Sequence record: OZ035743.1
Reading direction: 5' to 3' (one strand)
DNA: 64,000 nucleotides
DNA from: Phapecoctavirus DIJ07P1
This document shows positions 10,768 through 59,485 of this stretch, in pieces. Each line of letters starts with the position of its first letter. Positions within the stretch are counted from its first letter, which is position 1. Both the position numbers and the translations under genes were made by a program. Below the pieces are notes generated by a model. It made no database searches and was not told the origin of the DNA. It saw only the letters and a list, made by a program, of their open reading frames with translations.

Positions 10768-10801
10768 ACTCATTGGAATTAAGTTTCTAACAGGAGCATA
10801 A

Positions 10802-12175
10802 ATGGCAACTTTTCGTGAAAAGGTAGCAACCGTAACTTTACTGTATGGTGCTACATCAATTCGTGAAACCCAGTTCGATATTCCCCTGATCCTTACAGGT
10901 CAGAACGTAACTGGCGAAGCGATTCAATATTACTCTTCTTCCGATGCACTTTTGGAAGCAGGTTATGGATTAAATGATCCAGCGTATATTATGGCAGTCA
11001 AACTGTTTAACGGTTTGTTCCCACCAGATCAAGTCATGGTTGGTAAGCGTGAAGTTACAAACTTTACTCTAACTCCAATCGTAGAAGATAGTGCAACTTA
11101 CACAATTACCATCAAAAATGGTACCAAGAAAAAAGAATTTAAATTCATTGCTGATGACACTGCAACTGCACAAGAGATTGTAGTTGGTCTGACTGAAATG
11201 ATCAATGCAGATCTTGTTTATGGCCCACTGTTTACAGTAGCTAACAACGGTGCTGCAATGACTTTCACTCCAGTAGAAGGTAAGTTTGGTTCTATTGACA
11301 GCACAGGTTTCACTCAAGAAACTGTCTATGCTAATGCTATTACGGAAGATATTGCTGCTCTGCATGATATTGATAGTAGCTGGTTCTGGACCCTTTCAGA
11401 TTCCCATGAAACAGAAGATGTTCTAGCTTTGGCTGCATGGGTAGAAGAGAATGATAAAGTTTACTTCTTCTCTAGCTCTGAACCTGGAATTAAAACGAAA
11501 GCAGAAGATAACGTTCTGGAACGACTCAATGACCTCGGTTATAATAACACTTGCTTTGCTTTGTGGATGACCGATGCAGATTCTGTATTCCCAGAAGCGG
11601 CAGTTGTTGGTGCAATCTGTTCTCGTCAACCTGGTTTAACTACTCTTCACGGTAAAACACTGGTAGGTGTAGAGATCGAGAAACTGGATCAGACTTCGGA
11701 AAACAATATTGTTCAACAGAACGGTAACATCTATCGTAAAGAGCATGGAACTCTGTTCTATCGTGATGGATTGATGGTTAGCGGTTTCTTTGTTGACTAT
11801 GTTGTTCATGCTTTGTGGTTTAAAGCTCGCACAGAAGAATCACTGTTTACACTGTTTAAACAACAGTCTATGCTGGGTGGTGGTGTTCGTGCTACTTCAA
11901 ACGGTCTGGCTTTGATTCGACAAGCTGTTCTGGCTAACCCGATCCAAGTAGGTATCCTCAACGGTTCCATCGCTAATGAAGTTGTTACTTCTGAAGAGAC
12001 TGGTTTGCGTGTCGATCTGAAACCTATTGTTTATATTCCTTCTCGTGCCGATATGACCGATGCGCAAATCAATGCTCGTCTGGTTGATGGGATGAAGATT
12101 GAATATGTTTACGCTGGCTTCTTCCATTACGTTAAAGTTCAGGTCAACGTCCTGACTAACCGTACTGCAAACTAA
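10802..12175 (+). CDS. tail sheath protein
   Basis: 457 aa, followed by 159-aa tube, frameshifted chaperone and tape measure (P2-type order). Confidence 0.55.
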   Translation: MATFREKVATVTLLYGATSIRETQFDIPLILTGQNVTGEAIQYYSSSDALLEAGYGLNDPAYIMAVKLFNGLFPPDQVMVGKREVTNFTLTPIVEDSATYTITIKNGTKKKEFKFIADDTATAQEIVVGLTEMINADLVYGPLFTVANNGAAMTFTPVEGKFGSIDSTGFTQETVYANAITEDIAALHDIDSSWFWTLSDSHETEDVLALAAWVEENDKVYFFSSSEPGIKTKAEDNVLERLNDLGYNNTCFALWMTDADSVFPEAAVVGAICSRQPGLTTLHGKTLVGVEIEKLDQTSENNIVQQNGNIYRKEHGTLFYRDGLMVSGFFVDYVVHALWFKARTEESLFTLFKQQSMLGGGVRATSNGLALIRQAVLANPIQVGILNGSIANEVVTSEETGLRVDLKPIVYIPSRADMTDAQINARLVDGMKIEYVYAGFFHYVKVQVNVLTNRTAN

Positions 12176-44248: not shown

Positions 44249-44527
44249 TTAAAATGGTTCGTTAGTCTCCATCATATATTCTGCTTCTAGTTCTTCCATA
44301 TGCTTTCTAAATTGGAAAGCAATTTCTGCTACAGTTACATTTAAATCTTTTTCAAAAACTTCTGTAGAGCCTTCATAAAAACGAATACCGTCAATTAAAA
44401 GCCCTCCGTGGTAATCCCAATCACTTTCACGAGAAAGCGGGTTAGGCTCTTCATAATAGTAATCCACCTCCACAACTAAGGCTTTCCCGTTACGAGTGGT
44501 GTATTCAAAATCAAAAGTGTTAATCAT
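44249..44527 (-). CDS. hypothetical protein
   Basis: ORF track. Confidence 0.25.
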   Translation of the reverse strand: MINTFDFEYTTRNGKALVVEVDYYYEEPNPLSRESDWDYHGGLLIDGIRFYEGSTEVFEKDLNVTVAEIAFQFRKHMEELEAEYMMETNEPF

Positions 44528-45471
44528 TATAGCTCCTCAAATAAAAGTCTACGACGCTCATTCAACACATCAATGTGATAATGAGTCCTGACATACTTAG
44601 CTAATGCTAATCCTTTCTCCATGCAAACATTAGGAGCACTTAATAAGTATTCCGTAATATCTTTCCACTCGGAAGGTGTTTCAGCAAAGAATAACAAATC
44701 TTTAAACTCTTGTGTATGATAATTCTCACGAGGAGAACAGATCAAAGGTAAACCCTTAGCACCTGCCTCAAGAATTTTAAGATTGCTTTTTGCATTATTA
44801 AACACGTTATCAATCAATGGCGCAAGACTGATTTGATGACCATCGTAAGATTCCATGTAGTTGGCATATGGTCTTACACCTTCATAAACACAAGTTGGTG
44901 CGACATTTTCTCTGATTACAGACCATTCACGACTACTTAAAACTTCAGAATCCCTACGAAAACCACATATTGTAAGATCTTTACCAAAATCAGGCAAGAT
45001 AGCCAAATCTTGTTTATGTGTTTCACTTCCAGCCCAGACTAATGGAGTTTTGGAGTAGCGATCACGGGTCAACACAAATTGACCTTCATCGTAAGGAAGT
45101 CCATTAGGGATTATGTGCACATTATCATTGTATTGTGAAAGTTCAACTTGCAAGGCAGGTGTCGTAGTTGTAACAAGGTCACTGTGCTCTAAAAACCATT
45201 TTAAATGTTCACGAATACCTGATTCAAAAATACCTTCTAACATGTGTCCTTTTGGAATAACTAAAGAGTCATCCAAATCCATAACCATTTTAAAGCCTAG
45301 GTTTTTAAGGGCTAAAAAGCCCTCTTTACCTTTTGTTGGCACTCCGTTAAAAACGAAAACGTTGTGTTTAGGTTGTGAAGAGAACTGCCTTGAGTAAGGC
45401 AGCACTACCCTATGGAAATCGCAGACACTATAATTGATTCCGTTACGATTGTCAAGAATTATTTGTCCCAT
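44527..45471 (-). CDS. glycosyltransferase-like protein, paralog A
   Basis: paralog of the adjacent gene (shared NLKILEAGAKGLPLICS, PLVWAG, HRVVLP blocks). Confidence 0.4.
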   Translation of the reverse strand: MGQIILDNRNGINYSVCDFHRVVLPYSRQFSSQPKHNVFVFNGVPTKGKEGFLALKNLGFKMVMDLDDSLVIPKGHMLEGIFESGIREHLKWFLEHSDLVTTTTPALQVELSQYNDNVHIIPNGLPYDEGQFVLTRDRYSKTPLVWAGSETHKQDLAILPDFGKDLTICGFRRDSEVLSSREWSVIRENVAPTCVYEGVRPYANYMESYDGHQISLAPLIDNVFNNAKSNLKILEAGAKGLPLICSPRENYHTQEFKDLLFFAETPSEWKDITEYLLSAPNVCMEKGLALAKYVRTHYHIDVLNERRRLLFEEL

Positions 45472-45478
45472 ACTTCAC

Positions 45479-46426
45479 CTACAAACTTTCAATAACCTGG
45501 CGTCGCAATTCGTTTGCATCTGCTAGATTATAGTGTGTTCGAACATGTTCCGCTAAGAACAAGCCACGATCTTCCCGATAGTTTGGATTGCGAAGAAGCT
45601 TAACAATTTCGTAATGCCATTCTGCTTTGTTCTCTGCGTAAGCAACAGCACGAGCATCTACAGGGTTAAAATAAGGTAATACCTTAGAACAAACAATCGG
45701 AATACCCTTTGCTCCAGCTTCCAGGATTTTGAGATTACTTTTACAATTATTAAAATCATTATCTACCAAAGGAGCTATAGCAATAGCATGACTTTCGTAA
45801 ACACTCATGTAATTATCTAAATCTTTTACAGCAGCTTTATATTTAGCGTTTGGTAAATTTCTGCGAATCTTAATCCACTCTTGTCCCGTGATGCTCTGTG
45901 ATGCTTCATATCCCGCAATAGTAAGAAGTTCATCATCGAAAGTATTAGAGACTAGTCGTAAGTCGGGTTCGTGACTAGCACCGCCAGCCCATACAACAGG
46001 GGTACCGGATGAACGATCATTTGACAAAGTGAATTGTCCACTATCAAAAGGAAGTGCATTTCGGATCACAACAACATTCCTATTTAAGTGACGGATCTTA
46101 TATGCCAAGTATTCCGTAGTCACAATAACCACATCAGCAAGCTTAACCATAGCCACAATAGCATGAGTGTTTGACTCGTATAAACTTGCCAAATAATGCT
46201 CTGGATTAAGTTGGTAAAAATCATCTAAGTCTACAACAATCTTAACACCTTGACGTTTCAAAGATAAAACGTATTCTGCACCTTTAGAGTGGATACGGTT
46301 AAACACAACAACATCTTTCTTAGGTTGAATATTATTGTTGTTAAATGGCATAACAATACGATGATAGTCACAACCGCTGTGAGGTTTTGCATCAATTTTT
46401 AGTTTAGACCATTTTTTATTTGACAT
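45479..46426 (-). CDS. glycosyltransferase-like protein, paralog B
   Basis: same length and conserved blocks as 44527-45471 (NLKILEAGAKGIPIVCS, PVVWAG, HRIVMP). Confidence 0.4.
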   Translation of the reverse strand: MSNKKWSKLKIDAKPHSGCDYHRIVMPFNNNNIQPKKDVVVFNRIHSKGAEYVLSLKRQGVKIVVDLDDFYQLNPEHYLASLYESNTHAIVAMVKLADVVIVTTEYLAYKIRHLNRNVVVIRNALPFDSGQFTLSNDRSSGTPVVWAGGASHEPDLRLVSNTFDDELLTIAGYEASQSITGQEWIKIRRNLPNAKYKAAVKDLDNYMSVYESHAIAIAPLVDNDFNNCKSNLKILEAGAKGIPIVCSKVLPYFNPVDARAVAYAENKAEWHYEIVKLLRNPNYREDRGLFLAEHVRTHYNLADANELRRQVIESL

Positions 46427-47099
46427 GTGCTAGTGCCTCCTCATAGGAAATTCGGATTTTCCCATTTTTAATATCCTCTAAAGATGCTTTATATTCTTCC
46501 CAGTTAATCCCAATAGCAGCTTCTTTCTCTTCTTTTGTCAGATTAGCAAAAGGCATAGGATTGTTTCCAAAAACATCGTCTGGGTGGATATAAGCCATGA
46601 TACGAAGTGGACAAGGTGTTGCCTGAATACCATGATTCAAACCAGCAGCTTTCAAACGGTGTCCCCATTCGGCATCTTCAAAACCATAACCGTGAGTGTA
46701 AGGGCGGAAATAACCCATCTTCTCAACAACGGCACGAGAATACATTGCAAATTGACACATTGCAAGTTCCCAGAGAATAACTTCTCCTTTGCTTCCAACA
46801 ACTTTATCTTTGAAGTACTCCGGCATACCAAAAAAATCCCATCCTCCAGAAACAGCTTGATCTACAAAGTATGTTTCCCATCCTTCCATGACTGGGTAGC
46901 AATCATCATCAAAAATAAACCAATAATCATAACCTTCTTCATAAAACTGGTGCATAAGTTCATTCCTGGCGTAAGCTACACCTTTACGATCTGGATCGTT
47001 GAATACTCGAAAATCTGCATGTGGATCTGTTACAAGATAGTCTTTAAGTGGACGGACACCTACAGTGATAACACCCACTCCGATTTTAATATTTTCCAT
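46416..47099 (-). CDS. GT-A-type glycosyltransferase-like protein (DxD motif)
   Basis: YWFIFDDDCYP acidic motif in a beta-alpha context. Confidence 0.35.
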   Translation of the reverse strand: MENIKIGVGVITVGVRPLKDYLVTDPHADFRVFNDPDRKGVAYARNELMHQFYEEGYDYWFIFDDDCYPVMEGWETYFVDQAVSGGWDFFGMPEYFKDKVVGSKGEVILWELAMCQFAMYSRAVVEKMGYFRPYTHGYGFEDAEWGHRLKAAGLNHGIQATPCPLRIMAYIHPDDVFGNNPMPFANLTKEEKEAAIGINWEEYKASLEDIKNGKIRISYEEALAHVK

Positions 47100-47107
47100 T
47101 TTCTCTC

Positions 47108-47671
47108 CTAGATAGTTTTACTGTGATCGTGACAGTGTAATAAATGATGTATAGACCGTTGAGGATTTGTTTGACCTAATCTGTAAATGTGAAACAGATA
47201 CATTCCCCGCATCAATCCTAACCTCTTTCCTTTTTCATGTAAAGTGCGAGAGAAAATTAGGTCGAATTGGATAGATTTTTCTTCGAAAGGAATTTCATTC
47301 CACAATGATTTTCTAAAAAGCAAAAAGAAACCTGCCAGAGGTGTTCCGAAAGGAACTTCTTCAACACTCACTTTATGATATTCTCTTGCAATCTTAGCAT
47401 ATTCTATATGGTTTAGAATATCTGGATCATCGTTAATTTGGTTAGAGAAAAGCTGATAACCACTACCTAACCTGTTACAAGTTGCACCTATTACATCAAA
47501 AGGCGGGTTTGACATAACAAGCTCTTCAAGCATAGATGGTTGATCAGGCAGGAGGAACATTGTATCGGTATCTCTTAAGCACACCCAACTATCATCTGGA
47601 AGAACGGCAATAGCTTCATTGATAGCCTTGCCGATATTTCCTGTCAGATAGGGAGTAATATAATAAATCAT
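47108..47671 (-). CDS. hypothetical protein, possibly nucleotide-sugar transferase-like
   Basis: VCLRDTDTMF acidic motif; weak. Confidence 0.25.
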   Translation of the reverse strand: MIYYITPYLTGNIGKAINEAIAVLPDDSWVCLRDTDTMFLLPDQPSMLEELVMSNPPFDVIGATCNRLGSGYQLFSNQINDDPDILNHIEYAKIAREYHKVSVEEVPFGTPLAGFFLLFRKSLWNEIPFEEKSIQFDLIFSRTLHEKGKRLGLMRGMYLFHIYRLGQTNPQRSIHHLLHCHDHSKTI

Positions 47672-48372: not shown

Positions 48373-48894
48373 TTAACTCCCCTTTGGTAGATAGAAACCA
48401 TGCACTTTATCTCGATAAACAAGACGCATATCACGCTCCCAGTGTGTCTTTATATTCCGCTTCTTGAAGTATAGAGCACCTTTAGTAACATCTAAAACAG
48501 ACCGCAATTCAGGAAAATGTTTCTCTAAATAAAGTAAACGCTCCGCTATTGCTTTTGCTTCCTGCCACTTATCTTTCTCTGTTACGTTAAAAGTTTTCGC
48601 ATATGAGAATTGCCCTTTCTGGAACAAGACTCCTCTGACTGTGTTAGGAAAGTAGGCATCATTTCTTCTATTGATTACCACATTCCCAACGGCATTCATT
48701 CCTTTTTTACCCAGACCGCGACCTTCTGCGTAAATTGCACAAGCTAATAGAATTTTATCATTATATTGTTTTGTACATTTGTGAACTACTTTAGCGGTTT
48801 TTACGTTTGCAGCTTCGGCTTTCGCCACAACAGGTGTAAATGTAAAAGCAGTTAAGGATAGTAACGCAACTGTTACAAAGTTTTTTATCAGCAA
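48373..48894 (-). CDS. secreted SleB/CwlJ-like cell wall hydrolase (candidate endolysin)
   Basis: Sec signal peptide ending AKAEA; CAIYAEGRG...GMNAVGNVVINR matches the Hydrolase_2 signature. Confidence 0.55.
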   Translation of the reverse strand: MLIKNFVTVALLSLTAFTFTPVVAKAEAANVKTAKVVHKCTKQYNDKILLACAIYAEGRGLGKKGMNAVGNVVINRRNDAYFPNTVRGVLFQKGQFSYAKTFNVTEKDKWQEAKAIAERLLYLEKHFPELRSVLDVTKGALYFKKRNIKTHWERDMRLVYRDKVHGFYLPKGS

Positions 48895-48993: not shown

Positions 48994-49596
48994 TTATGGA
49001 CATTCATACCATTCTTTTTTACCACCGAAGGCCATCACCACATCGCAAATATCCAGACCAGCTTTACCTACACCATATGCTTTCAGTTTCCATTCCCCAT
49101 CTTCACGAACCAAGGAAGCCACGTGGCAGATTGTGTTGCCAGCTACTTCAGGAGCCAGGAAGTCAAAATCCAGAATTTCCACATTGCGCTCGGAGTCGAA
49201 GATTTTAAGCATACCTTCAGAAGCATGACCAAAACGTTTCAGACCTGTATCATCATCAATGGTCAGAACAAAGGCAATCTCTTGTGCATCAGGAGAGATT
49301 TTAGCCAGAGTAATATCAATCTGCTCCATGCTGCCAGTTCCATCACGAACATCGTCACCAGCGAAGGTAGAACGTTCAGGATCAAACTTGTTAGCATAGC
49401 AAACCAGATGACGTGCAGACAGCATTTCAGGATTGCCAGCGGCATTGTGACGACAAACCAGTGCACTTACATCCAGATCCAGTTTAGAATCAGATTTCCA
49501 AGAGAATTCCAGGCGCAGTTCTTTCAGAGCCGGAGCAACTTTCTTCAGGGAAATTTTTTCGCTAGAGCCTTTTTTCAGGGAAATTTTATCAGTCAT
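48994..49596 (-). CDS. terD: TerD-family protein
   Basis: aligns by eye along its length to E. coli TerD (ISLKKG..ISLKK, LDLDVSA, GDDVRDGTGSMEQI, EGMLKIFD, DGEWKLKAYGVG). Confidence 0.85.
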   Translation of the reverse strand: MTDKISLKKGSSEKISLKKVAPALKELRLEFSWKSDSKLDLDVSALVCRHNAAGNPEMLSARHLVCYANKFDPERSTFAGDDVRDGTGSMEQIDITLAKISPDAQEIAFVLTIDDDTGLKRFGHASEGMLKIFDSERNVEILDFDFLAPEVAGNTICHVASLVREDGEWKLKAYGVGKAGLDICDVVMAFGGKKEWYECP

Positions 49597-49611
49597 CTTT
49601 TGTCTCCTCTA

Positions 49612-49881
49612 TTATTTAAGTGTAATACCAGTTACAGTCAATTCTACTTCCAAAAGCTTAGATGTGTTTTGGATTGATACTAATTGTGCATGATGGTTTA
49701 GTTCTACAGCAGAATAATCGTTTTCCCCATCATCTACTTTTAAATAAACAATGACTTCACTAAGGTCTAAACCATTTTCGTCAAATGCATTTTCATAGAC
49801 GAAAGTATCTCCTACATCCAAATCCTTAATGGTAAGGCATCGTTTATTTATTTTTTGCTCATCAATTTCGAAGTTTAACAC
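49612..49881 (-). CDS. small protein, paralog of 50903-51247
   Basis: shares F-I-EEK...DLGIG-TF-Y-A-ED-GLD and C-terminal V-L-VT-ITLK with the other copy. Confidence 0.35.
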   Translation of the reverse strand: MLNFEIDEQKINKRCLTIKDLDVGDTFVYENAFDENGLDLSEVIVYLKVDDGENDYSAVELNHHAQLVSIQNTSKLLEVELTVTGITLK

Positions 49882-50110
49882 TTCTTCCTCCTAATGTTAT
49901 CTCCGGTTTGTATATACGAAGAATTATAGCATTTTCATTTTCTTTGTCAACCCATTCTTCATAATCAGGCCATACATGAATCTCTACTCTACTTACAATA
50001 TCTTCCATTCGCACAGTCCCAATGAAATACTCTTTGAGACTGCGCATAATGAAAGCTTCTCTCTCGCGCCAATAATTTTCTATGACTTGAGAGGCAAGCT
50101 CGTCGATCAT
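49862..50110 (-). CDS. hypothetical small protein
   Basis: ORF track. Confidence 0.25.
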   Translation of the reverse strand: MIDELASQVIENYWREREAFIMRSLKEYFIGTVRMEDIVSRVEIHVWPDYEEWVDKENENAIILRIYKPEITLGGRSVKLRN

Positions 50111-50901
50111 TTTTTAGCACCTACTTTAACAACCCACTCTCCGAACTCTTCAGATAAGAGTTTGTCATAAAGCTCTGAATCTGTCAAGTCTAAATCTTTA
50201 ATGCCAATAAAACCAACATTATCATAAGCATTTGCCAGTTCTTTCAGGAAGCCAAACTTCTCATTACCAACGCCAACCATGAACCAATAAATAGGTTTAT
50301 TCTTATTCTCTTCAATAAGACGACGAACAGCACTAGGATCACCATTCTCACCATCCGTCTGGAAGAATACAACACCAGGGGTAACGTCAGCACCTGGTTC
50401 AGACACAGCTACAACCTTTTCACGCTCTACAGATACTGTTTCAGTTTTACCAAGCAGACGATTAAAGAAGCCTTTCTTTGGAGCCTCCTCTTGTACCACT
50501 TGTTTAGTGGTAATATATTTGGTAACAGTGCCAAAATACTCATCGTAGATATCTGCCATTACAGGGGCGTAATTTGTTCCACCTCCGATACGAACATTGC
50601 GCATACATTTACCAACATAGTCATCGTAAACGTCTGCTGTTGCTGGAGTAAGCTCTTGGGAACTCGTATTGAAGGCCCACATATCAATTTGTTGATTATC
50701 GTCGAACAGCATACCAAAAGGAAGCAGTTTACCTACAAAATCACTCACTACCCCACTAGAATATAGACCATGCATACTACCAGAAATATCTAGAGCACAT
50801 GCTACACGAAGAACAATCTTACCTTCATTCAGGTTCTTATTCTTTTTCAGAGAGAAAGCAAGGTTTTCTTGACGTTTTTTCAGGCTGATTTTCTCGGACA
50901 T
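50107..50901 (-). CDS. vWA-domain protein with TerD-like N-terminus (TerY-like)
   Basis: MIDAS motif LDISGSM, later GGGTNYAP and FFQTDGENGD; N-terminus ISLKK...SLKK resembles TerD start. Confidence 0.6.
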   Translation of the reverse strand: MSEKISLKKRQENLAFSLKKNKNLNEGKIVLRVACALDISGSMHGLYSSGVVSDFVGKLLPFGMLFDDNQQIDMWAFNTSSQELTPATADVYDDYVGKCMRNVRIGGGTNYAPVMADIYDEYFGTVTKYITTKQVVQEEAPKKGFFNRLLGKTETVSVEREKVVAVSEPGADVTPGVVFFQTDGENGDPSAVRRLIEENKNKPIYWFMVGVGNEKFGFLKELANAYDNVGFIGIKDLDLTDSELYDKLLSEEFGEWVVKVGAKK

Positions 50902-50902
50902 A

Positions 50903-51247
50903 TTATTTCTCCTTCTTAAGTGTAATATTGGTAACTTCTAAATCTACTTCCACCATATTTGTATCTGGCGGGATGCAATGAGTATAGCCTCGTTGTGCTA
51001 GTGATCCATTAATACAGATCGCACTGTTTGTGGAATTTTTAATGAACACCAAGTTACGGTAGGTATCCAACCCTGCGTCTTCATAGGCATCATAATACAT
51101 GAATGTGGCCCCTATGCCAAGATCTTCGAAAGCAATAGGTAAATCCTGACTTTTTTCTTCTTGAATATTGAATCTAAACACGCATACCTCCTCTACCAAT
51201 TTTGAAGCCCAAATCGTAAGCTTCCTTAGTGATCTTTTGTAACTCAC
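50903..51247 (-). CDS. small protein, paralog of 49612-49881 (likely GTG start near 51181)
   Basis: paralogy; GGAGG precedes GTG that overlaps the upstream stop. Confidence 0.35.
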   Translation of the reverse strand: MSYKRSLRKLTIWASKLVEEVCVFRFNIQEEKSQDLPIAFEDLGIGATFMYYDAYEDAGLDTYRNLVFIKNSTNSAICINGSLAQRGYTHCIPPDTNMVEVDLEVTNITLKKEK

Positions 51248-51737
51248 TTATAGGAAGTGTTACAAGAGGATCATCTTCTTCAATTTCCATCTTGTCATCT
51301 TCTGTTTCAATGAGAGTATTATGCACTTTGTGATAAGGGTTGTCAACACGTTTAAACTTATTCTTTTCTGTGCTGAAAAAACAATCTGGATCTTCTTCAC
51401 CATCACCCCAACCTTGGTTAGGATCTCCGTCAGATTGTTCTGTAGGGATTTCACCTGTAAAATACTCTTCCAGCACCATAGCGATACCGTCCCTTGGATT
51501 TGAGGAATGCATCAAATCACAAACCTTACTCCAATCCATAGCCCATTCGAATCGTTCGCGAACACCATTTTCATCCTCCTTTCCAGAGAAAACACAACCA
51601 TAACTATCATAGTTGCCATACATCTCTTCAATAACAACACCGTCCTTCAAAAGAAAGAGGTAGCAAGGTGATCCGTCGAAAGAAGTAGAAAGGGCAGCTT
51701 TGCCCGATTCTTTGCACAAAAAACTAAAACAACCCAT
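51174..51737 (-). CDS. acidic hypothetical protein
   Basis: ORF track. Confidence 0.3.
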   Translation of the reverse strand: MGCFSFLCKESGKAALSTSFDGSPCYLFLLKDGVVIEEMYGNYDSYGCVFSGKEDENGVRERFEWAMDWSKVCDLMHSSNPRDGIAMVLEEYFTGEIPTEQSDGDPNQGWGDGEEDPDCFFSTEKNKFKRVDNPYHKVHNTLIETEDDKMEIEEDDPLVTLPISELQKITKEAYDLGFKIGRGGMRV

Positions 51738-51940
51738 TACAAACCCTCCTTCAGATTATCAAGAGCTACAGTGGTTTCACAAAATTCTCCATAAGCTTTA
51801 TGATGTTCCAGAAAAGCTTCGGGTCCACCCCAGTCATTATCTTGTGTATTCCAACCATCAATAAAAGCATCTTCAATGATTGTGATCAGTTCTTGTCGGG
51901 TTAACTGGATAATATTAGGATCGTTATCGTAGTTAAACAT
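51737..51940 (-). CDS. hypothetical small protein
   Basis: ORF track. Confidence 0.2.
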   Translation of the reverse strand: MFNYDNDPNIIQLTRQELITIIEDAFIDGWNTQDNDWGGPEAFLEHHKAYGEFCETTVALDNLKEGL

Positions 51941-52105
51941 CTTCTTCCTCCTCTAAAATATGAAACCCGTAATTACAATAGTCCTGAAAGGTTTCGTGCG
52001 CAAGATCTTCTATATCCTCTTGAGACATATCATCTTCAATTTCGATATCCACAACCTCATTGCATCCACACCAAGCAGTTTCAATATTCACTCGTAATAT
52101 TTTCA

Positions 52106-52303
52106 TTACTCCTCCTCCTCATTGAAGTCAATATCTGCAAGGAGTTGGAATTTACGGAAGTTACGACAACCTTCATAAATATAACAATCACGACAAACTG
52201 CTAGAACACTTGGGGGATATATGCCTCCCATCGGTGCGAATCGTTTTTCGTCATCATAACGGACACCAATGTCTTCATCAATTATATAGATACGGATTCT
52301 CAT
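52106..52303 (-). CDS. small Cys-containing protein
   Basis: ORF track. Confidence 0.2.
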   Translation of the reverse strand: MRIRIYIIDEDIGVRYDDEKRFAPMGGIYPPSVLAVCRDCYIYEGCRNFRKFQLLADIDFNEEEE

Positions 52304-53412
52304 TTACCAAGCCCTCGTTTCACAGCAGCTACCATCCCGTCTTCCAAAGATTGAACTTCATTAATATAATCAACACGAGCAGCACGGGCTTCCGTATTGA
52401 TGCGGTTAGTTTCTTCCAACATCTTAACCAAGTTTTCCTGATCGTGACGCAGAGTTTCAATATCCAACACTTGACGGTTAGCCAGTGCTGCTGCTTCGAT
52501 CTGATTCTGTGTGGCAAGATCGCTACCCAGTTTAATTGCCAGGTTAAATTCATCAAGAACGTTATTCTGCGTCTCTGCTGCTTTCATTTGACGTAAGCTC
52601 TCGATATACATTGAGAAGTTAGCAGAGTAAGCAGGAATAACATTATTTACTATGTTACGCGCAGATCGCATTAAGCTTGCAGAAACTTTTTGCATACCTT
52701 GTACACGCGGTCCCATTTGGACACACAGTAGGCGCAATGCTTTTAAATCTGCAATACGAATCTCCAGAAGATCCAAAGTATCTCGGATCACTTGTCGCTG
52801 TTCTACTGCATCTTCTGGAAGAGCAGCCAAAGCTTGTTCTTCTTTTTCATAGGTTGCTGTTAGAAGCTGCATATCTCGGTTCAAACTTGCAGCATATTGT
52901 CCAATAGCTTGATGTAGCTTTTCAAGATATACCAAGGAATCTTCTTCTTTGCGAATATCCATTTGAAGGTTTTTTACCAACTCTTCAATACGGTTATTAA
53001 CATTATCAAACTCCCCAAACAGATCTTCTTTCATACCCATAACTTTTTTAATGAGTTTAGTAATACCCTTGCTTTGTTTAATAGAGTTTGGATCAAGTTG
53101 TTTTGCCTGTTTAATCAAAGCTGTGAGTCGTTCACTCATCTGATCGCCTTGATTACTACGTTGATGTTTTAATACCTCGGCATTCAAGGAACGCAAGGTT
53201 GTTCCTGCCTCTGCTCCAATCTCTTCGATCTCCTGTCGGGTCATAGAAGGCAAAACTGGAACTTCTTGCGGTGCCGCTGGTGCATAAACAGGACTGGCAT
53301 CTAACACGCTTGGAGCGAATACAGATTTACTTGCATCTGTTGTTGCAGCAAATACGCTCATTTCAGGTTTCTTCTGACAGCCAGTAGCTGCTTTTAAAAA
53401 TGGACTTGTCAT
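52300..53412 (-). CDS. TelA-like toxic-anion-resistance family protein (tentative)
   Basis: 370 aa, all-helical, size and Ter neighbourhood consistent with TelA/KlaB; no motif check possible. Confidence 0.35.
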   Translation of the reverse strand: MTSPFLKAATGCQKKPEMSVFAATTDASKSVFAPSVLDASPVYAPAAPQEVPVLPSMTRQEIEEIGAEAGTTLRSLNAEVLKHQRSNQGDQMSERLTALIKQAKQLDPNSIKQSKGITKLIKKVMGMKEDLFGEFDNVNNRIEELVKNLQMDIRKEEDSLVYLEKLHQAIGQYAASLNRDMQLLTATYEKEEQALAALPEDAVEQRQVIRDTLDLLEIRIADLKALRLLCVQMGPRVQGMQKVSASLMRSARNIVNNVIPAYSANFSMYIESLRQMKAAETQNNVLDEFNLAIKLGSDLATQNQIEAAALANRQVLDIETLRHDQENLVKMLEETNRINTEARAARVDYINEVQSLEDGMVAAVKRGLGK

Positions 53413-53999
53413 TCTTCATTCTCCTCTTCTGCATCTCTTATATATGGTGAAACACCGTACTCTTTAGCTACTTTAACCCAATCGTCCCATTTATACAACC
53501 ATAATTTTCCTTCGGTCCCTTCTTTATCTGATTTCAACCACATATTAGGTTGCTTACCTGGGTACATGCGATTAGGTTTACGATTATAACCTCTAACACA
53601 TCTTGTCGCAAACCTATCTACCAGAACAAGAACATATTTATATTCGTGGTTCAACGGCTCTTTGGAAGTGGCTTTAGGATTAGCCCCTAACTCTGCTGCC
53701 AGTTTTTGCCAATGAGCACCGTGTCTACTAAACTTACCCATACAACCATCAATAGCATGAGCAATTTCGTGCTTCATTGTATCCACGATCATATCTCTTG
53801 TAGAGTTCTTATGCAAGTGCCAATTTACAACAACAATTTTATCTCGGTAGTTGCACCAACCGAAAGAGTTATTCACTTTGTTTCTAACACAAGCTTTATA
53901 TCCTGCTTCACGTAACATGTTGTAGTAAACAGGAAAATCTTCTTTTATTTCCTGCATCACTTCCCACCACAAGAGTTGCAAGTCTCTCTCGGTATACAT
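53409..53999 (-). CDS. SprT-like zinc metalloprotease
   Basis: MKHEIAHAIDG...HGAHW (HExxH plus downstream His/Trp). Confidence 0.55.
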   Translation of the reverse strand: MYTERDLQLLWWEVMQEIKEDFPVYYNMLREAGYKACVRNKVNNSFGWCNYRDKIVVVNWHLHKNSTRDMIVDTMKHEIAHAIDGCMGKFSRHGAHWQKLAAELGANPKATSKEPLNHEYKYVLVLVDRFATRCVRGYNRKPNRMYPGKQPNMWLKSDKEGTEGKLWLYKWDDWVKVAKEYGVSPYIRDAEEENEE

Positions 54000-54002
54000 A
54001 AC

Positions 54003-54596
54003 TTACACCTTAAAAGTGAAATGCGTGGTCGTGGTTTCAAAATCAGGACCAGATAAACGTGCACTGAAATCTGAAATATTTGTAATTAAAAAGCTTTTAT
54101 GCATACCTAACACAGCTACGCTTTCAATATCTTCTACTAACATTTCAATCATGTTAGAAACATGGCTGAACGTAGAGTTTTGTTTTTTGATGGTGTAGAA
54201 AGAAAGATTCCCACCTGCTGTATAAGATACCTCTTCAAAATCTTTAATGGTATATTGTGTGCCATCAGTAAAGAAAATGGTAGCTTTATTAGTAGCACGT
54301 TTCTTGTTTTTTGGTCCTTTTTTACGTTTACTGCGAGTAGGCAAACCGTTTGGGAACACCATAGCTACAAATTCTTCAGCAGAAACCTCCTTACCGAAAT
54401 CATAACCATAAGAAACAGCGTCTATAAACTCGTCATCTTCATTTTTAAAATAATGGAAATAGGGCCAATTTGAGAGATTATCGAGCATCTTATGCTCATC
54501 CACAGCAGAGAACGTATCCCTCAAAGCACGTGTGATTTGCAAAGCATTAGGCAAACTTTTAACACCTGTAATGGAAGTACGAATAGAAATTGTCAT
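54003..54596 (-). CDS. hypothetical protein
   Basis: ORF track. Confidence 0.3.
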   Translation of the reverse strand: MTISIRTSITGVKSLPNALQITRALRDTFSAVDEHKMLDNLSNWPYFHYFKNEDDEFIDAVSYGYDFGKEVSAEEFVAMVFPNGLPTRSKRKKGPKNKKRATNKATIFFTDGTQYTIKDFEEVSYTAGGNLSFYTIKKQNSTFSHVSNMIEMLVEDIESVAVLGMHKSFLITNISDFSARLSGPDFETTTTHFTFKV

Positions 54597-54610
54597 TGTT
54601 TTTCTCCTTA

Positions 54611-55048
54611 TTAACGTCGCTTGCTACGAGATGAACTCTTTTTACTTAAAGGGCTATTGTAAGATTTACGAGTTGTATAGCTACTATTTGTTTTAAAAGT
54701 TTGTCTCGGCTTTTCATAAGTTTTTATCTCTTGTTTAGGCTTACTATAAAAATTAGTTTTCGGTTTAGGTGTATTATAATGTTTATTAATAATCGTTCTG
54801 TTATCGTTATAATCCCCACTGCTACGATTACTACCGCCACTCATCATATGCCCTAACAACATACCTGTAGCAAACTCACCAACACCGTTACTACTAGAAC
54901 CGCCACCATTGTTGATAATAGTTGTATCTCCGTCAGATCCTTGTTGAGCGTATTGTTGAGGAGGTTGTTGGTATTGTGCAGGATTTGTTTCATCCTCGCA
55001 AGCTGTTAAAAAGATACAACCAATTAAAATCAGGGCTAGTTTTTTCAT
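54611..55048 (-). CDS. lipoprotein (start at internal Met)
   Basis: MKKLALILIGCIFLTAC lipobox; Q/G-rich middle, basic C-terminus. Confidence 0.45.
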   Translation of the reverse strand: MKKLALILIGCIFLTACEDETNPAQYQQPPQQYAQQGSDGDTTIINNGGGSSSNGVGEFATGMLLGHMMSGGSNRSSGDYNDNRTIINKHYNTPKPKTNFYSKPKQEIKTYEKPRQTFKTNSSYTTRKSYNSPLSKKSSSRSKRR

Positions 55049-55231
55049 ATTTGCTTTCCTCGTTTTGGCTATTAATACATCTGTGTTTGAAATCTCCAGA
55101 GAAGCAATAAAGTTGCTCTCCATCTCGGTATAAACTCACTTTACTGCCGTTGATTACGCTTGTCAATACAAAAATTACAACAAACAACCCTATTGCAAAA
55201 CAAATATTTTCAAACACAACCAACAAGTATT

Positions 55232-55582
55232 TCATTTTAAAAATACCTCATCATCAGTTTCATTATCCCAGAAGAACAAGTCCCAACCATTCGGATCATT
55301 CCATTTAGCTGCTGGAGAAGTCCATATTTGCTCGATATCAATATTCAAAACTTCACCGTTTCGTTTTGAAACAGCTTTAGTTAATTCCCAACGGGATACA
55401 GGCTCCACTTCCCCTGAACCACTCCCACAACAAGCTACCACATTAGGAGGCAAATTAATTGGATCTTTGGTCACGATCATAACGCTTACCCCAGGGTAAA
55501 CTTTTGAAAGATAATCTAAAACGTAATCCACATCACCAGATAAATCCCAAACAAGTTCTTGAATTTCATCAAAATTATTCAT
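55232..55582 (-). CDS. hypothetical protein
   Basis: ORF track, RBS AGGAGAG. Confidence 0.3.
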   Translation of the reverse strand: MNNFDEIQELVWDLSGDVDYVLDYLSKVYPGVSVMIVTKDPINLPPNVVACCGSGSGEVEPVSRWELTKAVSKRNGEVLNIDIEQIWTSPAAKWNDPNGWDLFFWDNETDDEVFLK

Positions 55583-55592
55583 AAGTCTCTCC

Positions 55593-55618
55593 TATAAAAT
55601 AGCCTCCCGAAGGAGGCT
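55593..55618 (-). terminator. intrinsic terminator after terC (minus strand)
   Basis: AGCCTCC-TTCG-GGAGGCT followed by ATTTTAT on minus strand. Confidence 0.6.
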
Positions 55619-55624
55619 CATCTA

Positions 55625-56599
55625 TTAAACAGAAGCTTCTTCTTTTTCAGGGAAGATAAAGCTTGCAATAACACCAAGAGATAATGTGCCTAGAACAATC
55701 ATCAGACTTACGTTAGGGGAAATATCATGCGGGAGGAATGACCACTTGGCATGAAGTGTTTCACCGAACGGGTGATACATAAGTTTAGCACCAACAAACA
55801 CCAGAACCACAGCAACAGCTTTCTCTAAGTGAACCAGATATTTCACAGCTACACTTAACACAAAGAAAAGTGCACGTAAACCAAGAACAGCCATCAGCAT
55901 TGCAGAATAAACTAGCAGAGGTTCTTGTGTCACACCGATCACAGCCGGAACTGAATCAAAAGAGAAGACAATATCTGTAAGCTCAATAACAAACACACAA
56001 AGAAGAGCAGGAGTTGCATATTTAATACCATTCTTAATGGTGATGAACTTTTCACCATCCAGTGCATTGTGCACAGGCAGAACTTTACCTACTAAACGAA
56101 CAGCCCAATGTTTAGAGTAATCAATATCCTCTTCTTCGTCACCACCTTTGATGATAGCCACGGCAGACCAAGCTACAATCAAACCGAACAACACTTGGAC
56201 CGACCAATGAAGGTTAAACAAAGCGGTCCCTGCTGCAACAAAAATACCTCGGAAGACAATGGCTCCTGCAATCCCCCAAAGTAGAATCTTATGTTGGAGA
56301 TGTGTGCTCTTAATTCCAAAGCTTGCAAAAATTGCCATGAACACCATTAGGTTATCTACAGAAAGACTCTTTTCCAACACATAGCCACTTAGGAAAAGCG
56401 CGGCAAACTCTTTACCATGTTCTACCCAAATGAATGCGTAATACCCTAAAGCTAAAGCAATCCAAAAAACAGACCAAAGCAAAGCAGATTTAATTCCAAT
56501 TTCTTTATTCTCTTTATGACCAAAGAAATCGATACCAATAGACAATGCCAAAATACCAACTAAAACAACTACATCAATAATTGGGAAACCGAGTTGCAT
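55625..56599 (-). CDS. terC: TerC-family integral membrane protein
   Basis: multi-pass membrane protein with LSGYVLEKSLSVDNLMVF family signature. Confidence 0.8.
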   Translation of the reverse strand: MQLGFPIIDVVVLVGILALSIGIDFFGHKENKEIGIKSALLWSVFWIALALGYYAFIWVEHGKEFAALFLSGYVLEKSLSVDNLMVFMAIFASFGIKSTHLQHKILLWGIAGAIVFRGIFVAAGTALFNLHWSVQVLFGLIVAWSAVAIIKGGDEEEDIDYSKHWAVRLVGKVLPVHNALDGEKFITIKNGIKYATPALLCVFVIELTDIVFSFDSVPAVIGVTQEPLLVYSAMLMAVLGLRALFFVLSVAVKYLVHLEKAVAVVLVFVGAKLMYHPFGETLHAKWSFLPHDISPNVSLMIVLGTLSLGVIASFIFPEKEEASV

Positions 56600-56649
56600 T
56601 CTTTTCTCCTCTCTCTGCGGGGGAACTATTCCCCCGCTTCATGTGATAT

Positions 56650-56677
56650 ATCTTACTCTTTTTAAGAACTATGTCAA
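56650..56677 (-). promoter_or_regulatory. sigma70-like promoter TTGACA-N16-TAAGAT upstream of terC (minus strand)
   Basis: -35 at 56677-56672, -10 at 56655-56650; GC hairpin 56616-56637 in the leader. Confidence 0.45.
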
Positions 56678-56680
56678 CAC

Positions 56681-56902
56681 TTATTTTGTTGAATGAGAGG
56701 AAAAGATTCCTCGTAATACCGCCAGAATAAACGAAACACAAACCACGGTCCAGAAGGTTACTGGGACAGTGATATCTGCATGACCCATAACTTCAGCAAC
56801 ATAGTTGTAAGCCAGCAACAGTAACCAAGCTGGAATCAAACTAAGCATAAAAGCAATAACAAAAAAGCTTACCACTGCAACAATACCTGCAAAAACACCC
56901 AT
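56681..56902 (-). CDS. small multi-TM membrane protein
   Basis: 73 aa, two to three hydrophobic segments. Confidence 0.3.
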   Translation of the reverse strand: MGVFAGIVAVVSFFVIAFMLSLIPAWLLLLAYNYVAEVMGHADITVPVTFWTVVCVSFILAVLRGIFSSHSTK

Positions 56903-56914
56903 ACTAATCTCCTC

Positions 56915-57454
56915 TTAAAGTTTATAAATAGTCACATCGTGACCTGTTTTTACTAAAGTTTCTTCAATCATCACTTGGATGATAGCCCAATTACCTCCAG
57001 CATATCCAGCGCCAATCATAGGTAAGCCGATCTTACATTTTTGGTCACGGAGAAGCAAATCATTAGCCATAGCTATTAGTGCATCGTAAAGTGCATCATA
57101 GTCCAACTGACGACCTTTAGCATTGTATCCGTAACGGTATTGCCCGTATAGATTATATACCAAAGGGTCTGATTGTTCGTCTGGCACCCCTAAACTAAAA
57201 GAACCTAACTTACTTTGATCACCAGCCATTGTGTCTAAATCTGCCGCATATGCATAAGGGAATGCTCGTTTAATTTGCGGAGCAATTCCTGCTCCCATAT
57301 TACACATACAATTGCAACAATGAGCAATAACAGTTACTTCACCTGCTTTAGCGGCATCAATAAGATTACCTGTTTTCATTTTAAGCATTTTTAGCTCCTT
57401 ATTACAGAATGTGTTGTTTTGTGTAACGATCCAAGAATTCAAAGTTTTCAGCAT
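56915..57454 (-). CDS. macro-domain protein (ADP-ribose binding/processing)
   Basis: GNLIDAAKAGEVTVIAHCCNC..MGAGIAPQIKRAFP and GLPMIGAGYAGGNW resemble MacroD motifs; start probably internal Met. Confidence 0.5.
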   Translation of the reverse strand: MLKTLNSWIVTQNNTFCNKELKMLKMKTGNLIDAAKAGEVTVIAHCCNCMCNMGAGIAPQIKRAFPYAYAADLDTMAGDQSKLGSFSLGVPDEQSDPLVYNLYGQYRYGYNAKGRQLDYDALYDALIAMANDLLLRDQKCKIGLPMIGAGYAGGNWAIIQVMIEETLVKTGHDVTIYKL

Positions 57455-58229
57455 ACTTTGAAATTCGGTTGTAACCTTCTCCCAAACATCCGAAGAAAAG
57501 TTGCTCTACATAGTAGTGTGGCAATTGGCTAAGAATGATTTTGAAGTCTTCGTGATTTTGGCCCATAAGATACTTAATAGGACGAACAAGACACTGTGCA
57601 TCACGTTCTTCATTAATCATTTTAACAAACGCTTCTGGTGTATTGATGTAGTTAAAATTCAGTTTAGCTTCAGTATCTGCTTGATTACCTTCATATTTTG
57701 CAAAATACAAGAAGTAAACATCATTTTTAACTTGATTTTCATCAAGAATCTCAATCAGTTTGTCTTCATGAGTTCCGGTGATATTTACATCATCAATGAA
57801 CACAAGCTTCTTATCACCCCAGAATTCTTTGTTGCAGTAGAATGTATCCCCATCAATAAGTTTCTTACGACTAGCTTTATCCAAGAAACCATAATCGTTG
57901 ATATAGCTAACTTTACGATGAATAATATCCAGTTCTGCTGAACGACCTTGATCATATTGTGCTTGCAACATATTAAAGTAATTAATAAAATGATCTGTCA
58001 TCATTGTTGCAGCATTGTGCACATGGTTATAAGGAGAAGGGATGATAACAAATTGTTCCCCAATATGTTTCATTGCCACTTGAGCAAAAAACTGAAGTGC
58101 CAATTCTTTACCCATACGACGCGCAGCTTGGTTACTACCAAATTTCAATTTTGAATAGTCTTTGATATCAAAAGTAGCAGTTTCCAGGTCATCAAATTTA
58201 TTTGCAAAAATTTGAGTTTGATTACGCAT
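57402..58229 (-). CDS. type I phosphoribosyltransferase
   Basis: PRPP-binding motif KKLVFIDDVNITGTHE. Confidence 0.6.
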   Translation of the reverse strand: MRNQTQIFANKFDDLETATFDIKDYSKLKFGSNQAARRMGKELALQFFAQVAMKHIGEQFVIIPSPYNHVHNAATMMTDHFINYFNMLQAQYDQGRSAELDIIHRKVSYINDYGFLDKASRKKLIDGDTFYCNKEFWGDKKLVFIDDVNITGTHEDKLIEILDENQVKNDVYFLYFAKYEGNQADTEAKLNFNYINTPEAFVKMINEERDAQCLVRPIKYLMGQNHEDFKIILSQLPHYYVEQLFFGCLGEGYNRISKYAENFEFLDRYTKQHIL

Positions 58230-58899
58230 TTACAATTTCTCCTCTTTTAAGTTTCTCTAGTAAGTCGTTAGGGTTCTTAATATGACAGAAGTTAATCCCT
58301 ATGTCAACACATTTACCATCAAATTCTTCGCTGTCCCCAACATGTAAAATCTCTTCAGCCTTCAAAGGAATGCTTGAATATGTGGCGGTCCTAACAAAGA
58401 ATCTAGGATCTGGTTTACATAACAGATGTTCGTCTGAAAAATGCATAAATTCAAAACAATTCCAACTGTCGAACATACAAGCACGACGCAAAATATCCCC
58501 AGATATAAAATTAGTATTGCTTTTAATACTAAGATCATATTTACCAGACAAGTATAGCAAACAAACTGGCAAATCTAAAGCGATATGTGGAGGAAATTTA
58601 AGAAACCATTGCTCACACTCAAAACGCATTTGTGCAGATTCTACAGGGGTTAAACCTATCTTTCTTCCCAACATATTCCATGCATATGCTACACCTTCTG
58701 CACACCCATTTAGTGCAGCATTATCCATAATTTCTTTGGCATCTTTATATGCTTCTTTTGCCGCACGTTCAGACATTCTACCATATGTAGCAATAGTGTG
58801 CGTACGTGCATCTGCATAGTTTTGATTGGCAGAAATAAGAGTATTCCATACATCAAAAGAAATATGTTTTATTGTCATACTAGGCCCACCACGCATCAA
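58222..58899 (-). CDS. HAD-superfamily hydrolase
   Basis: motif I ISFDVWNTL, motif III CKPDPRFF, motif IV HVGDSEEFD. Confidence 0.6.
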   Translation of the reverse strand: MMRGGPSMTIKHISFDVWNTLISANQNYADARTHTIATYGRMSERAAKEAYKDAKEIMDNAALNGCAEGVAYAWNMLGRKIGLTPVESAQMRFECEQWFLKFPPHIALDLPVCLLYLSGKYDLSIKSNTNFISGDILRRACMFDSWNCFEFMHFSDEHLLCKPDPRFFVRTATYSSIPLKAEEILHVGDSEEFDGKCVDIGINFCHIKNPNDLLEKLKRGEIVNA

Positions 58900-59485
58900 G
58901 ATTTAAGTTACTGTCTACCACAACTTGTTCTATGTGGTAGCCTTTTATCTGTATCCCACTGTTCAAGAGCATATCATACGCTTCATTGAAACGCAACTTA
59001 TCTTCTGCGGAATATAAGCGAGCATTATAAAATCGGTAATCAATTTCTTCAGCATTAGAAGAAATACGGAAGAAGTTTGTTTCTACTTCGGGATCACTTG
59101 CTGAAGTCTTAATGTGAACTTCTCCATAATTTTCTTTACTTAGATCCATGAAAAGAACACAGGCAACATGTTTAAACATTCGTTCCAGTTTGTAACGAAC
59201 AACATTGAAACCTGCATTCTCAAGTTTTTCTACACACTGCAACATTAAAGTAGTGTCGAGATCGCTTTGATACTTTGTTAACATACGATCACGTTGAGAC
59301 TTTGTATCCCGATGTAAATCAATTGTTGTGCATTTGGCACCAATAATCTTAGCTGCTTTCATCAACTCTTCAGAACTAACGTTAGATAAAGTAAGATGAA
59401 AATGGGCTTTCCACACTTTTTTAGCAGGGACACCAAAAGATTTATCCCCACTATTCGGCATGTTGACTACTACACTATGTTGCAT
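58880..59485 (-). CDS. hypothetical protein
   Basis: ORF track. Confidence 0.3.
   Translation of the reverse strand: MQHSVVVNMPNSGDKSFGVPAKKVWKAHFHLTLSNVSSEELMKAAKIIGAKCTTIDLHRDTKSQRDRMLTKYQSDLDTTLMLQCVEKLENAGFNVVRYKLERMFKHVACVLFMDLSKENYGEVHIKTSASDPEVETNFFRISSNAEEIDYRFYNARLYSAEDKLRFNEAYDMLLNSGIQIKGYHIEQVVVDSNLNLDAWWA

Follow-up and report, generated by a model that had tools for sequence, protein, structure and literature searches.

The role of the Ter (tellurite resistance), TelA and TerD systems has been unclear since the 1970s. Ter operons carried by bacteriophages, among them abbreviated versions consisting of TerD, TerC, TerF and TelA, have been described by Iyer, Anantharaman, Krishnan, Burroughs and Aravind (2021, Viruses 13:63, PMC7824862), who proposed competition with superinfecting phages as their role and listed phosphoribosyltransferases (PRTases) and HAD enzymes as components of Ter signal biosynthesis. 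Four tellurite-resistance-related genes have been noted in phage ZCKP1, with colicin resistance and superinfection exclusion suggested as their functions (PMC6141743), and the same observation of phage Ter genes has been made in a Klebsiella phage preprint. Phage inhibition and colicin resistance have also been ascribed to plasmid ter loci, in passages that cite Whelan 1995 and Taylor & Summers 1979. In this work we have analyzed a block of 10.5 kb, positions 48994 to 59485, in a 64,000-nt stretch of DNA from Phapecoctavirus DIJ07P1 (sequence record OZ035743.1; the whole stretch is called the window below), in which the four families of the abbreviated phage Ter operon are found together with a PRTase, a HAD hydrolase and a macrodomain protein. 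All genes of the block lie on the minus strand.

GenBank records of the genus Phapecoctavirus annotate TerE/TerD, TelA, TerC, a phosphatase and a hydrolase, with 'tellurite resistance' as the label of the Ter genes, and phage ZCKP1 is 98.6% identical to the window across the block. Phage Ter genes are thus already known from earlier reports, and no new kind of system is added here. The question addressed is how the genes of the block belong together. The original prediction, made from the letters of the sequence, had read them as one Ter-like island; we consider it on balance probable that the block is a mosaic accessory region of Phapecoctavirus, built of at least three separable modules rather than of a single pathway.

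The Ter core of the block

All four Ter-core families are encoded on one phage within 48994-56599, with Pfam E values from 3e-28 to 3e-40: TerD (48994-49596, 3e-28), a vWA-TerF-like protein (50107-50901, PF10138, 1.6e-37), TelA (52300-53412, 3e-33, residues 59-361) and TerC (55625-56599, 3e-40). These genes, together with those for an SprT-like protease, the macrodomain protein, the PRTase and the HAD hydrolase, had been named in the original prediction on the same strand and at the same positions; the profile matches lie far beyond chance, and the placement of the TerD and TerC products in their families is borne out. In the direction of transcription the order is TerC, TelA, vWA, TerD; about 15 further open reading frames (ORFs) are interspersed with these genes, which span 7.6 kb.

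The TerD-domain protein matched the solved TerD structures of Klebsiella and Streptomyces in the PDB (2KXT, 1.5e-15, and also 3IBZ) and keeps the DLD motif as LDLDVSA. The vWA protein has an intact MIDAS motif (DxSxS), present as DISGS within LRVACALDISGSMHG, and is homologous to the TerF vWA of a Klebsiella plasmid and to the vWA genes of phages CcrBL9 and phiPsa315. It had been credited with a TerD-like N-terminus; the likeness is real but short, about 13 codons, and comes from a tandem duplication recognizable at the DNA level (49570-49652 versus 50875-50952, 76-77% identity). The 3' end of a small phrog_11278 gene was duplicated together with the ribosome-binding site and ~13 initial codons of the gene that follows, and the start MxxKISLKK shared by TerD and the vWA protein stems from this. 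An internal 30-nt repeat of the MxxKISLKK motif is found within TerD (49540-49608). The two small phrog_11278 proteins, paralogue a (49612-49881) and paralogue b (50903-51181, directly upstream of the vWA gene), are 32% identical to each other.

Homologues of TelA were found in 224 phage records belonging to several lineages. TerC is an integral membrane protein with multiple transmembrane (TM) segments in the hydropathy scan, and it scored 318.6 bits against the NCBIfam model TIGR03718 (Alx subfamily, TerC/Alx metal homeostasis; cutoff 246.4). Its gene is directly preceded by that of a small membrane protein of 73 amino acids with two hydrophobic segments (56681-56902) and directly followed by a terminator-like hairpin, AGCCTCC-TTCG-GGAGGCT with a T-rich tail (55601-55618), recognized in the consensus scan and by reading the sequence. 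A recent capture of TerC from the host was ruled out, since blastn gave no DNA-level match in 5,426 E. coli genomes. An Mn (yybP-ykoY) or other riboswitch in front of the Alx-like TerC gene was rejected as well, as the Rfam search returned no element at the gathering threshold or even at E≤1. One further candidate for the core, orf187 (51174-51737), was considered as the possible counterpart of TerB or of another absent Ter component, and discarded: it carries a widespread phage domain, without known fold, that occurs in non-Ter contexts.

Comparison with phage and bacterial Ter loci

The contiguous genes gp249-252 of Caulobacter phage CcrBL9 encode TelA, a vWA-TerF-like protein, a TerC-family protein and TerD, and gp014-018 of Pseudomonas phage phiPsa315 show this order too, with one small gene in addition. 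The window shares with these abbreviated operons the four Pfam families, the large lytic phage as carrier and the location in an early/accessory region. It differs from them in sequence (vWA proteins 25-29% identical, TelA 21-28%) and in architecture, since CcrBL9 and phiPsa315 have a compact TelA-vWA-TerC-TerD operon, whereas in the window TerC comes first, the genes are scattered and a hairpin follows TerC. The TerC proteins also differ in type, that of CcrBL9 being DUF475/TerC-type and that of the window belonging to the Alx subfamily.

In phiPsa315 the region 726-11449 (11 kb) also contains ribose-phosphate pyrophosphokinase-like and nicotinamide PRTase-like genes in a NARP1/NARP2-like pairing, and a macrodomain protein 42% identical to that of the window is encoded about 3 kb upstream of the compact Ter core. 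Phosphoribosyl pyrophosphate (PRPP)/NAD-type enzymes and a macrodomain thus occur beside a Ter core in another lineage that is unrelated to the first.

The original prediction had also matched the block to the gene repertoire of bacterial ter neighbourhoods, and this holds for the four-gene core but hardly for the biosynthetic genes. Compared with the enterobacterial terZABCDEF locus (Klebsiella pRJA166a, IncHI2 R478), full-length alignment gives 46% identity between the phage TerC and that of a Klebsiella ter plasmid, TerD is 31% identical to the Klebsiella plasmid TerE/TerD, the TerF vWA is homologous, and PRTase- and HAD-superfamily enzymes are close by in both. The phage has one TerD paralogue in place of five or six and lacks TerW and TerB: no TerB (PF05099) was found among the 20 window ORFs scanned, while the Klebsiella plasmid TerB was easily detected at 1.4e-22. 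TelA is present in the phage and absent from the Klebsiella plasmid ter locus. The biosynthetic module of the Klebsiella ter island consists of PRTase_2+TRSP, StiP+PELOTA, ATPgrasp_Ter, C-C_Bond_Lyase and a PF12710 HAD; no member of this set was found in the window by Pfam scan, the phage PRTase and HAD showed no BLAST similarity to that module at E<1, and the window HAD is an unrelated protein with 18% identity to the HAD of the Klebsiella ter plasmid. Because the families differ and none is BLAST-similar, the resemblance to the bacterial biosynthetic module is confined to the superfamily level. That the phage PRTase and HAD are direct homologues of the enzymes of the enterobacterial ter island was rejected, as tblastn gave nothing at E<1 and no hit to an IncHI2-type plasmid.

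The Bacillus subtilis unit yceCDEFGH encodes three TerD paralogues, TerC/MeeF, YceG and the TelA-like YceH. It resembles the phage core in joining TerD, TerC and TelA in one envelope-stress-associated unit, and differs in having no vWA-TerF protein and in being chromosomal and sigma-factor regulated.

The HAD-PRTase_3 cassette

Upstream of the Ter core, a HAD-IA-like hydrolase (58222-58878; 58222-58899 in the domain search) and a ComF-like PRTase of the PRTase_3 family (57402-58229) form a two-gene cassette, in which the HAD gene comes first. The PRTase matched PF15610 over its full length (positions 9-264 of 264, E 6e-42, 144 bits versus a cutoff of 28.7) and keeps the PRPP loop FIDDVNITGTHE, in which D146, D147, V148, I150, T151, G152, H154 and E155 are invariant in five of five diverse phage sequences. 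Its homologues form 408 clusters, all of them PF15610. For the HAD protein the Pfam Hydrolase match (E 1.4e-3) is below the cutoff, and the assignment comes from NCBIfam HAD-IA models and from PDB 2OM6, which has the same FDVWNTL motif. Motif I reads D-V-W-N-T instead of the canonical DxD, with a Trp that is nearly invariant in the clade and present also in 2OM6; motifs II-IV (S120-N121, K155-P156 and G181-D182...D187) are nearly invariant across 11 cassette homologues. The concern that the macro, PRTase and HAD motifs were chance matches is removed by these conserved HAD motifs, by the PF15610 score and, for the macrodomain, by the PDB and DarG model matches given below.

In every context examined, the PRTase gene is immediately preceded by the HAD gene. 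The pair was found in Xanthomonas phage XaC1, Rhizobium phage TM30 and Brevundimonas phage Kabachok, in three metagenomic phage contigs and one Fibrobacterota contig, and on Rhizobium and Sinorhizobium plasmids. In nine such contexts outside the window no Ter genes were present within 10-15 kb, and among all those examined the PRTase_3-Ter association holds only in Stephanstirmvirinae; for Kabachok, no Ter core was found in the 75 kb examined. The sampled clade thus differs from PF15610 PRTase_3 at large in being a phage/plasmid two-gene cassette with a DVW-type HAD, mostly unlinked to Ter. An isolated HAD(DVW)-PRTase_3 pair is located on Rhizobium johnstonii pRL10 (8346-9819), about 0.9 kb from repA, and another on a Sinorhizobium plasmid (8370-9840). 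The occurrence of the cassette on rhizobial megaplasmids suggests a function that is general to mobile elements and not phage-specific.

Bacterial chromosomal relatives of the PRTase were sought by a contig scan, which gave only two phage-derived contigs and one Fibrobacterota contig with the bare cassette. A contig of the metagenome-assembled genome 'Proteobacteria bacterium OH_PFB_59' is probably of phage origin and was binned with it, since the PRTase_3 encoded there is 100% identical to that of the window. Participation of PRTase_3 in a NARP2-like NAD pathway was unsupported: the neighbouring TM30 gene annotated 'cytidyltransferase' encodes a NUDIX protein, and the window gene annotated 'nucleotidyltransferase' had no Pfam hit.

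The macrodomain protein and orf201

The cassette is flanked by two genes in tight spacing, with a 1-nt gap between orf201 and HAD, an 8-nt overlap between HAD and PRTase and a gap of ~13 nt between PRTase and macro. The macrodomain gene (56915-57388; the longest ORF extends to 57454) encodes a protein of the Tk.4/AdfM (DarG/TARG1-like) family. Its Pfam Macro match (E 8e-5) is just over the gathering score, and it is supported by the NCBIfam (2e-8) and PADLOC (4e-10) DarG models and by structures in the PDB, of which the Streptomyces SCO6735-type 5E3B is the best (6e-13), followed by DarG 5M31 and TARG1 at about 1e-6 to 2e-6. The protein is thus likened to DarG by models and structures, and differs in that its best structural match is of the SCO6735 type and not DarG itself. 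It is 37% identical to Tk.4 of phage T4 (E 3e-21), and the search for homologues gave about 2,985 phage records, many of them annotated tk.4. It has been reported in a 2025 preprint that T4 Tk.4 is the anti-DarTG2 factor AdfM, a macrodomain needed to resist DarTG2 (bioRxiv 10.1101/2025.11.20.689424), and it is for T4 Tk.4 alone that DNA ADP-ribosyl-glycohydrolase activity and protection from DarTG2 have been demonstrated. The best-supported reading of the window protein is that of a putative DNA ADP-ribosyl hydrolase of the AdfM type, not of a Ter component. In phage PaulScherrer (Justusliebigvirus) the macrodomain protein (locus 10833-11567) is longer, 244 amino acids, with an extra N-terminal region.

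The 201-aa product of orf201 (58880-59485), likewise not a Ter component, matched PADLOC 'AbiEi' models with E 4.7e-13, and two of these models match all 22 members of its family with E values down to 5e-14; no winged helix-turn-helix domain was found in the orf201 model. An exhaustive profile search gave 251 representative clusters for the domain. The 13 listed representatives of 337-352 amino acids carry it at the C-terminus, and the three that were scanned all have an N-terminal NUDIX domain; of the other representatives one has an HD_4 and one an HTH_3 domain. The fusions and the PADLOC matches point to a nucleotide-related or antitoxin-like role for orf201. Among the structural relatives in BFVD are proteins encoded by Acinetobacter phage ME3 and by several giant viruses, and in Rheinheimera phages the homologues lie among unrelated early genes. 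A 2H phosphoesterase was considered and dismissed, as the two HxT/S motifs on a 2H fold were not found. In PaulScherrer the place of orf201 is taken by an AAA-ATPase-like gene of 386 amino acids (locus 7785-8945) and small ORFs.

Conservation and putative expression signals

Between Phapecoctavirus and Justusliebigvirus (phage PaulScherrer) the core proteins are 81% (TerD), 78% (TelA), 71% (TerC) and 67% (vWA) identical, and the reference ribonucleotide reductase proteins NrdD and NrdG are 80% and 67% identical. Since the intergenus identity of 67-81% is similar to that of NrdD/NrdG, the Ter core is under purifying selection. The corresponding values are 64% for PRTase, 60% for the 73-aa membrane protein upstream of TerC, 49% for macro and 47% for HAD. 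SprT, orf201, orf116 and orf82 are missing from PaulScherrer, and the ORFs within 53999-55582 are partly or not conserved in Justusliebigvirus. The SprT-like protease and several small ORFs are, by this comparison, lineage-specific additions.

A sigma-70 promoter consensus of TTGACA-16-TG-TATAAT form, with 12 of 12 matching positions and an extended -10, is located at 49950-49923 in front of paralogue a and TerD; by our own estimate, such a match is expected by chance ~0.01-0.02 times per 19 kb. A promoter-like site with 11 of 12 positions (51346-51318) precedes paralogue b and vWA. Hairpin terminators at 62082-62062 and 55618-55601 bracket a run of genes from nrdD/nrdG through orf201, HAD, PRTase, macro and the 73-aa protein to TerC.

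Discussion

Under the mosaic interpretation the first module is a phage 'abbreviated Ter' core, TerC/Alx-type transporter, TelA, vWA-TerF-like protein and TerD, lying amid small membrane, lipoprotein and other ORFs; a host-type promoter appears to serve the TerD gene, if not others of the core. The four proteins would form a complex at the host inner membrane during infection and alter the ion and envelope state of the cell, and the altered envelope would resist pore-forming or DNA-injecting attack by superinfecting phages, colicins and membrane-targeting abortive-infection effectors. We propose protection of the envelope because plasmid ter loci show phage-inhibition and colicin-resistance phenotypes and because of the earlier literature proposals of superinfection exclusion or xenobiotic protection for phage Ter genes. 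The second module, HAD(DVW)-PRTase_3, would be translationally coupled, self-contained and mobile; from PRPP and a base-like acceptor it may produce a ribosylated small molecule, which the HAD enzyme would probably process. The Tk.4/AdfM-type macrodomain, as the third module, most likely strips ADP-ribose from DNA and would thereby counter DarT2-type toxins. The fourth, orf201, with its putative nucleotide-associated domain, may be an orphan antitoxin-like or a nucleotide-handling factor. What the comparisons show are the identities of the genes, their homologies, their separability and their conservation; the functions assigned here to the modules are all inferred.

For the second module a more specific proposal can be made, tentatively and with some doubt. 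The HAD(DVW)-PRTase_3 pair, which rhizobial megaplasmids share with at least five unrelated lineages of phages, could be an uncharacterised, self-contained mobile module that serves in the conflict of phages or plasmids with their hosts by making or destroying a ribosylated small molecule. Rebuilding of the nucleotide pool, sequestering of an immune signal or detoxifying of a base analogue could be its role. In Stephanstirmvirinae it could be embedded in a small anti-defence cluster, placed between an AbiEi-model-like, NUDIX/HD-associated protein and an AdfM-like macrodomain and adjoining the Ter core.

Several observations weigh against the mosaic interpretation or against particular steps of it. 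Throughout Stephanstirmvirinae the Ter core is found next to macro and HAD-PRTase_3, and this, together with the macrodomain gene near the Ter core of phiPsa315, may indicate a functional link between the modules; PF15610 itself presumably comes from a Ter-related Pfam lineage, judging by the adjacency of its accession to those of the Ter-paper families. The acidic Ca-binding loop of TerD, for which GDN(R/L)TGEGDGDDE is expected, is partly degenerate (GDDVRDGTGSMEQ versus GDNRTGEGDGDDES), with several acidic positions lost. The orf201 product had no match to any Pfam AbiEi family, no AbiEii-like partner gene is located nearby, and its PADLOC 'AbiEi' label is provisional. Promoters and terminators were called by consensus alone, and the total of promoter matches, 66 versus 54 ± 7 in shuffled sequence, is barely above expectation. 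The literature searched contained no experiments on phage Ter genes.

The adjacency of the genes could also mean that they form one integrated Ter pathway, as in the model of Anantharaman, Iyer and Aravind, in which a nucleoside-like metabolite made by PRTase_3 and HAD, perhaps with the help of orf201 and macro, would be sensed by TerD, and TerC, TelA and vWA would respond to the signal at the membrane. Contiguity, common orientation and synteny across both Stephanstirmvirinae genera speak for such a pathway, as do the tight spacing from orf201 to macro, the terminators bracketing the run from nrdD to TerC, the presence of both modules in Brevundimonas and Caulobacter jumbo phages, and the fusion of the orf201 domain elsewhere to NUDIX/HD nucleotide hydrolases; PRTases and HAD enzymes are, moreover, among the signal-biosynthesis components named by Iyer et al. 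(PMC7824862). We nevertheless regard it as unlikely. HAD-PRTase_3 recurs far from Ter genes in nine other contexts, plasmids included, the macrodomain family is ubiquitous in phages without Ter genes, and the biosynthetic genes of enterobacterial ter belong to different families. Conversely, Otagovirus, Asteriusvirus and RaK2-type phages have TelA or the Ter core and are absent among the PRTase_3 matches. It is on the recurrence of the cassette without Ter genes and on the ~2,985 phage records of the macro family that the original prediction of a single island system fails.

A role of the core in metal homeostasis seems equally improbable to us. Here the level of Mn2+, Zn2+ or Ca2+ in the infected cell would be set by the Alx/TerC transporter together with TerD and vWA as Ca/Mg-binding proteins, which could aid phage enzymes such as the adjacent ribonucleotide reductases or provide metal to envelope proteins. 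The TerC score above the cutoff of the NCBIfam metal-homeostasis model, the intact MIDAS of vWA, the DLD motif kept in TerD and a perhaps common transcript of TerC with nrdDG are consistent with this, and TerC/Alx proteins have been linked to Mn export and to Zn/tellurite resistance in passages of two reports (PMC10197570, PMC12054061). Against it stand the failure to find an Mn riboswitch or other Rfam element before TerC, and the location of the four-gene core away from ribonucleotide reductase genes in other phages; TelA and the historical phage- and colicin-resistance phenotypes would also be left unexplained. As horizontally acquired cargo of little benefit, a host ter fragment giving tellurite resistance or nothing, the core is very hard to accept. 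The GenBank label 'tellurite resistance' and the 46% identity to plasmid TerC might suggest it, but the intergenus conservation of the core about equals that of NrdD/NrdG, DNA-level similarity to any of the 5,426 E. coli genomes is lacking, the same four-gene set has been kept independently in three unrelated phage lineages, and long-term metalloid resistance of the host is useless to a strictly lytic phage. The least credible of the readings is hypermodification of DNA or nucleotides, in which PRTase, HAD and neighbouring glycosyltransferases would build a protective modified base. PRTase and HAD chemistry could yield an unusual nucleotide and four glycosyltransferase genes lie 1.3-4.5 kb downstream, but no hydroxymethylase or DNA-transferase gene is linked to the cassette, which is also found on rhizobial plasmids beside repA. 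This modification role, raised in the original prediction, is disfavoured because phi92-like relatives with the syntenic HAD-PRTase-macro-Ter block are reported to be exceptionally susceptible to restriction-modification and to have no effective protection (PMC8594841).

With its minimal four-gene core on tractable lytic phages, the block offers a clean test bed for the role of the Ter proteins; the syntenic block is carried by PaulScherrer, and the phi92-like relatives of the BASEL collection were isolated on E. coli K-12. The division into modules also guards against mis-annotation, the macro gene being an AdfM-type anti-DarT candidate, and it leaves the HAD-PRTase_3 cassette, an unexplained mobile-element module with orphan-antitoxin-like neighbours, as the most novel residue.

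Other genes of the block and its genomic context

The SprT-like HExxH metalloprotease (53409-53999; PF10263, E 4e-9, 36.7 bits versus a cutoff of 25.6) has the motif HEIAH, and the stop codon of its gene overlaps the start of TelA. The lineage-specific ORFs between 53999 and 55582, which matched only PHROGs families of unknown function, comprise orf116 (55232-55582), a protein with one TM segment by hydropathy (54990-55235), a predicted lipoprotein with the lipobox LTAC (54611-55048) and orf197 (54003-54596). Three small ORFs (52106-52303, 51933-52106 and 51737-51940) follow TelA, and orf82 (49862-50110) is located between the vWA gene and paralogue a.

Over its whole length the block shares 99.3% identity with Escherichia phage ESCO13 (Caudoviricetes; Stephanstirmvirinae; Phapecoctavirus). 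Its identity to the 30 best-matching phAPEC8-like records listed ranges from 96.6 to 99.3%, and 64 phage records contain 80% or more of it. NrdG/NrdD are encoded immediately upstream, together with a helicase, and an endolysin, four glycosyltransferases, a primase/helicase and DNA polymerase downstream, in a virulent-type myovirus, so the description of the carrier as a virulent-looking phage with the block next to nrdDG and replication genes was correct: it is a large lytic Phapecoctavirus. The GC skew changes sign at about 36 kb, which fits a long early/replication arm on the minus strand.

The endolysin homologue (window 48373-48894, minus strand) has a hydrophobic N-terminal segment (residues 1-24) compatible with the signal-anchor-release type. 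Just downstream of it, four consecutive genes on the same strand (window 44527-47671) are annotated as glycosyltransferases in close relatives, and the BASEL paper describes a putative dTDP-glycosylation machinery, without restriction protection, in phi92-like phages. Several near-identical Phapecoctavirus genomes have been deposited under unlikely hosts, for instance as Campylobacter phage B15 and Acinetobacter phage ABPW7, and also under Pseudomonas and Klebsiella names.

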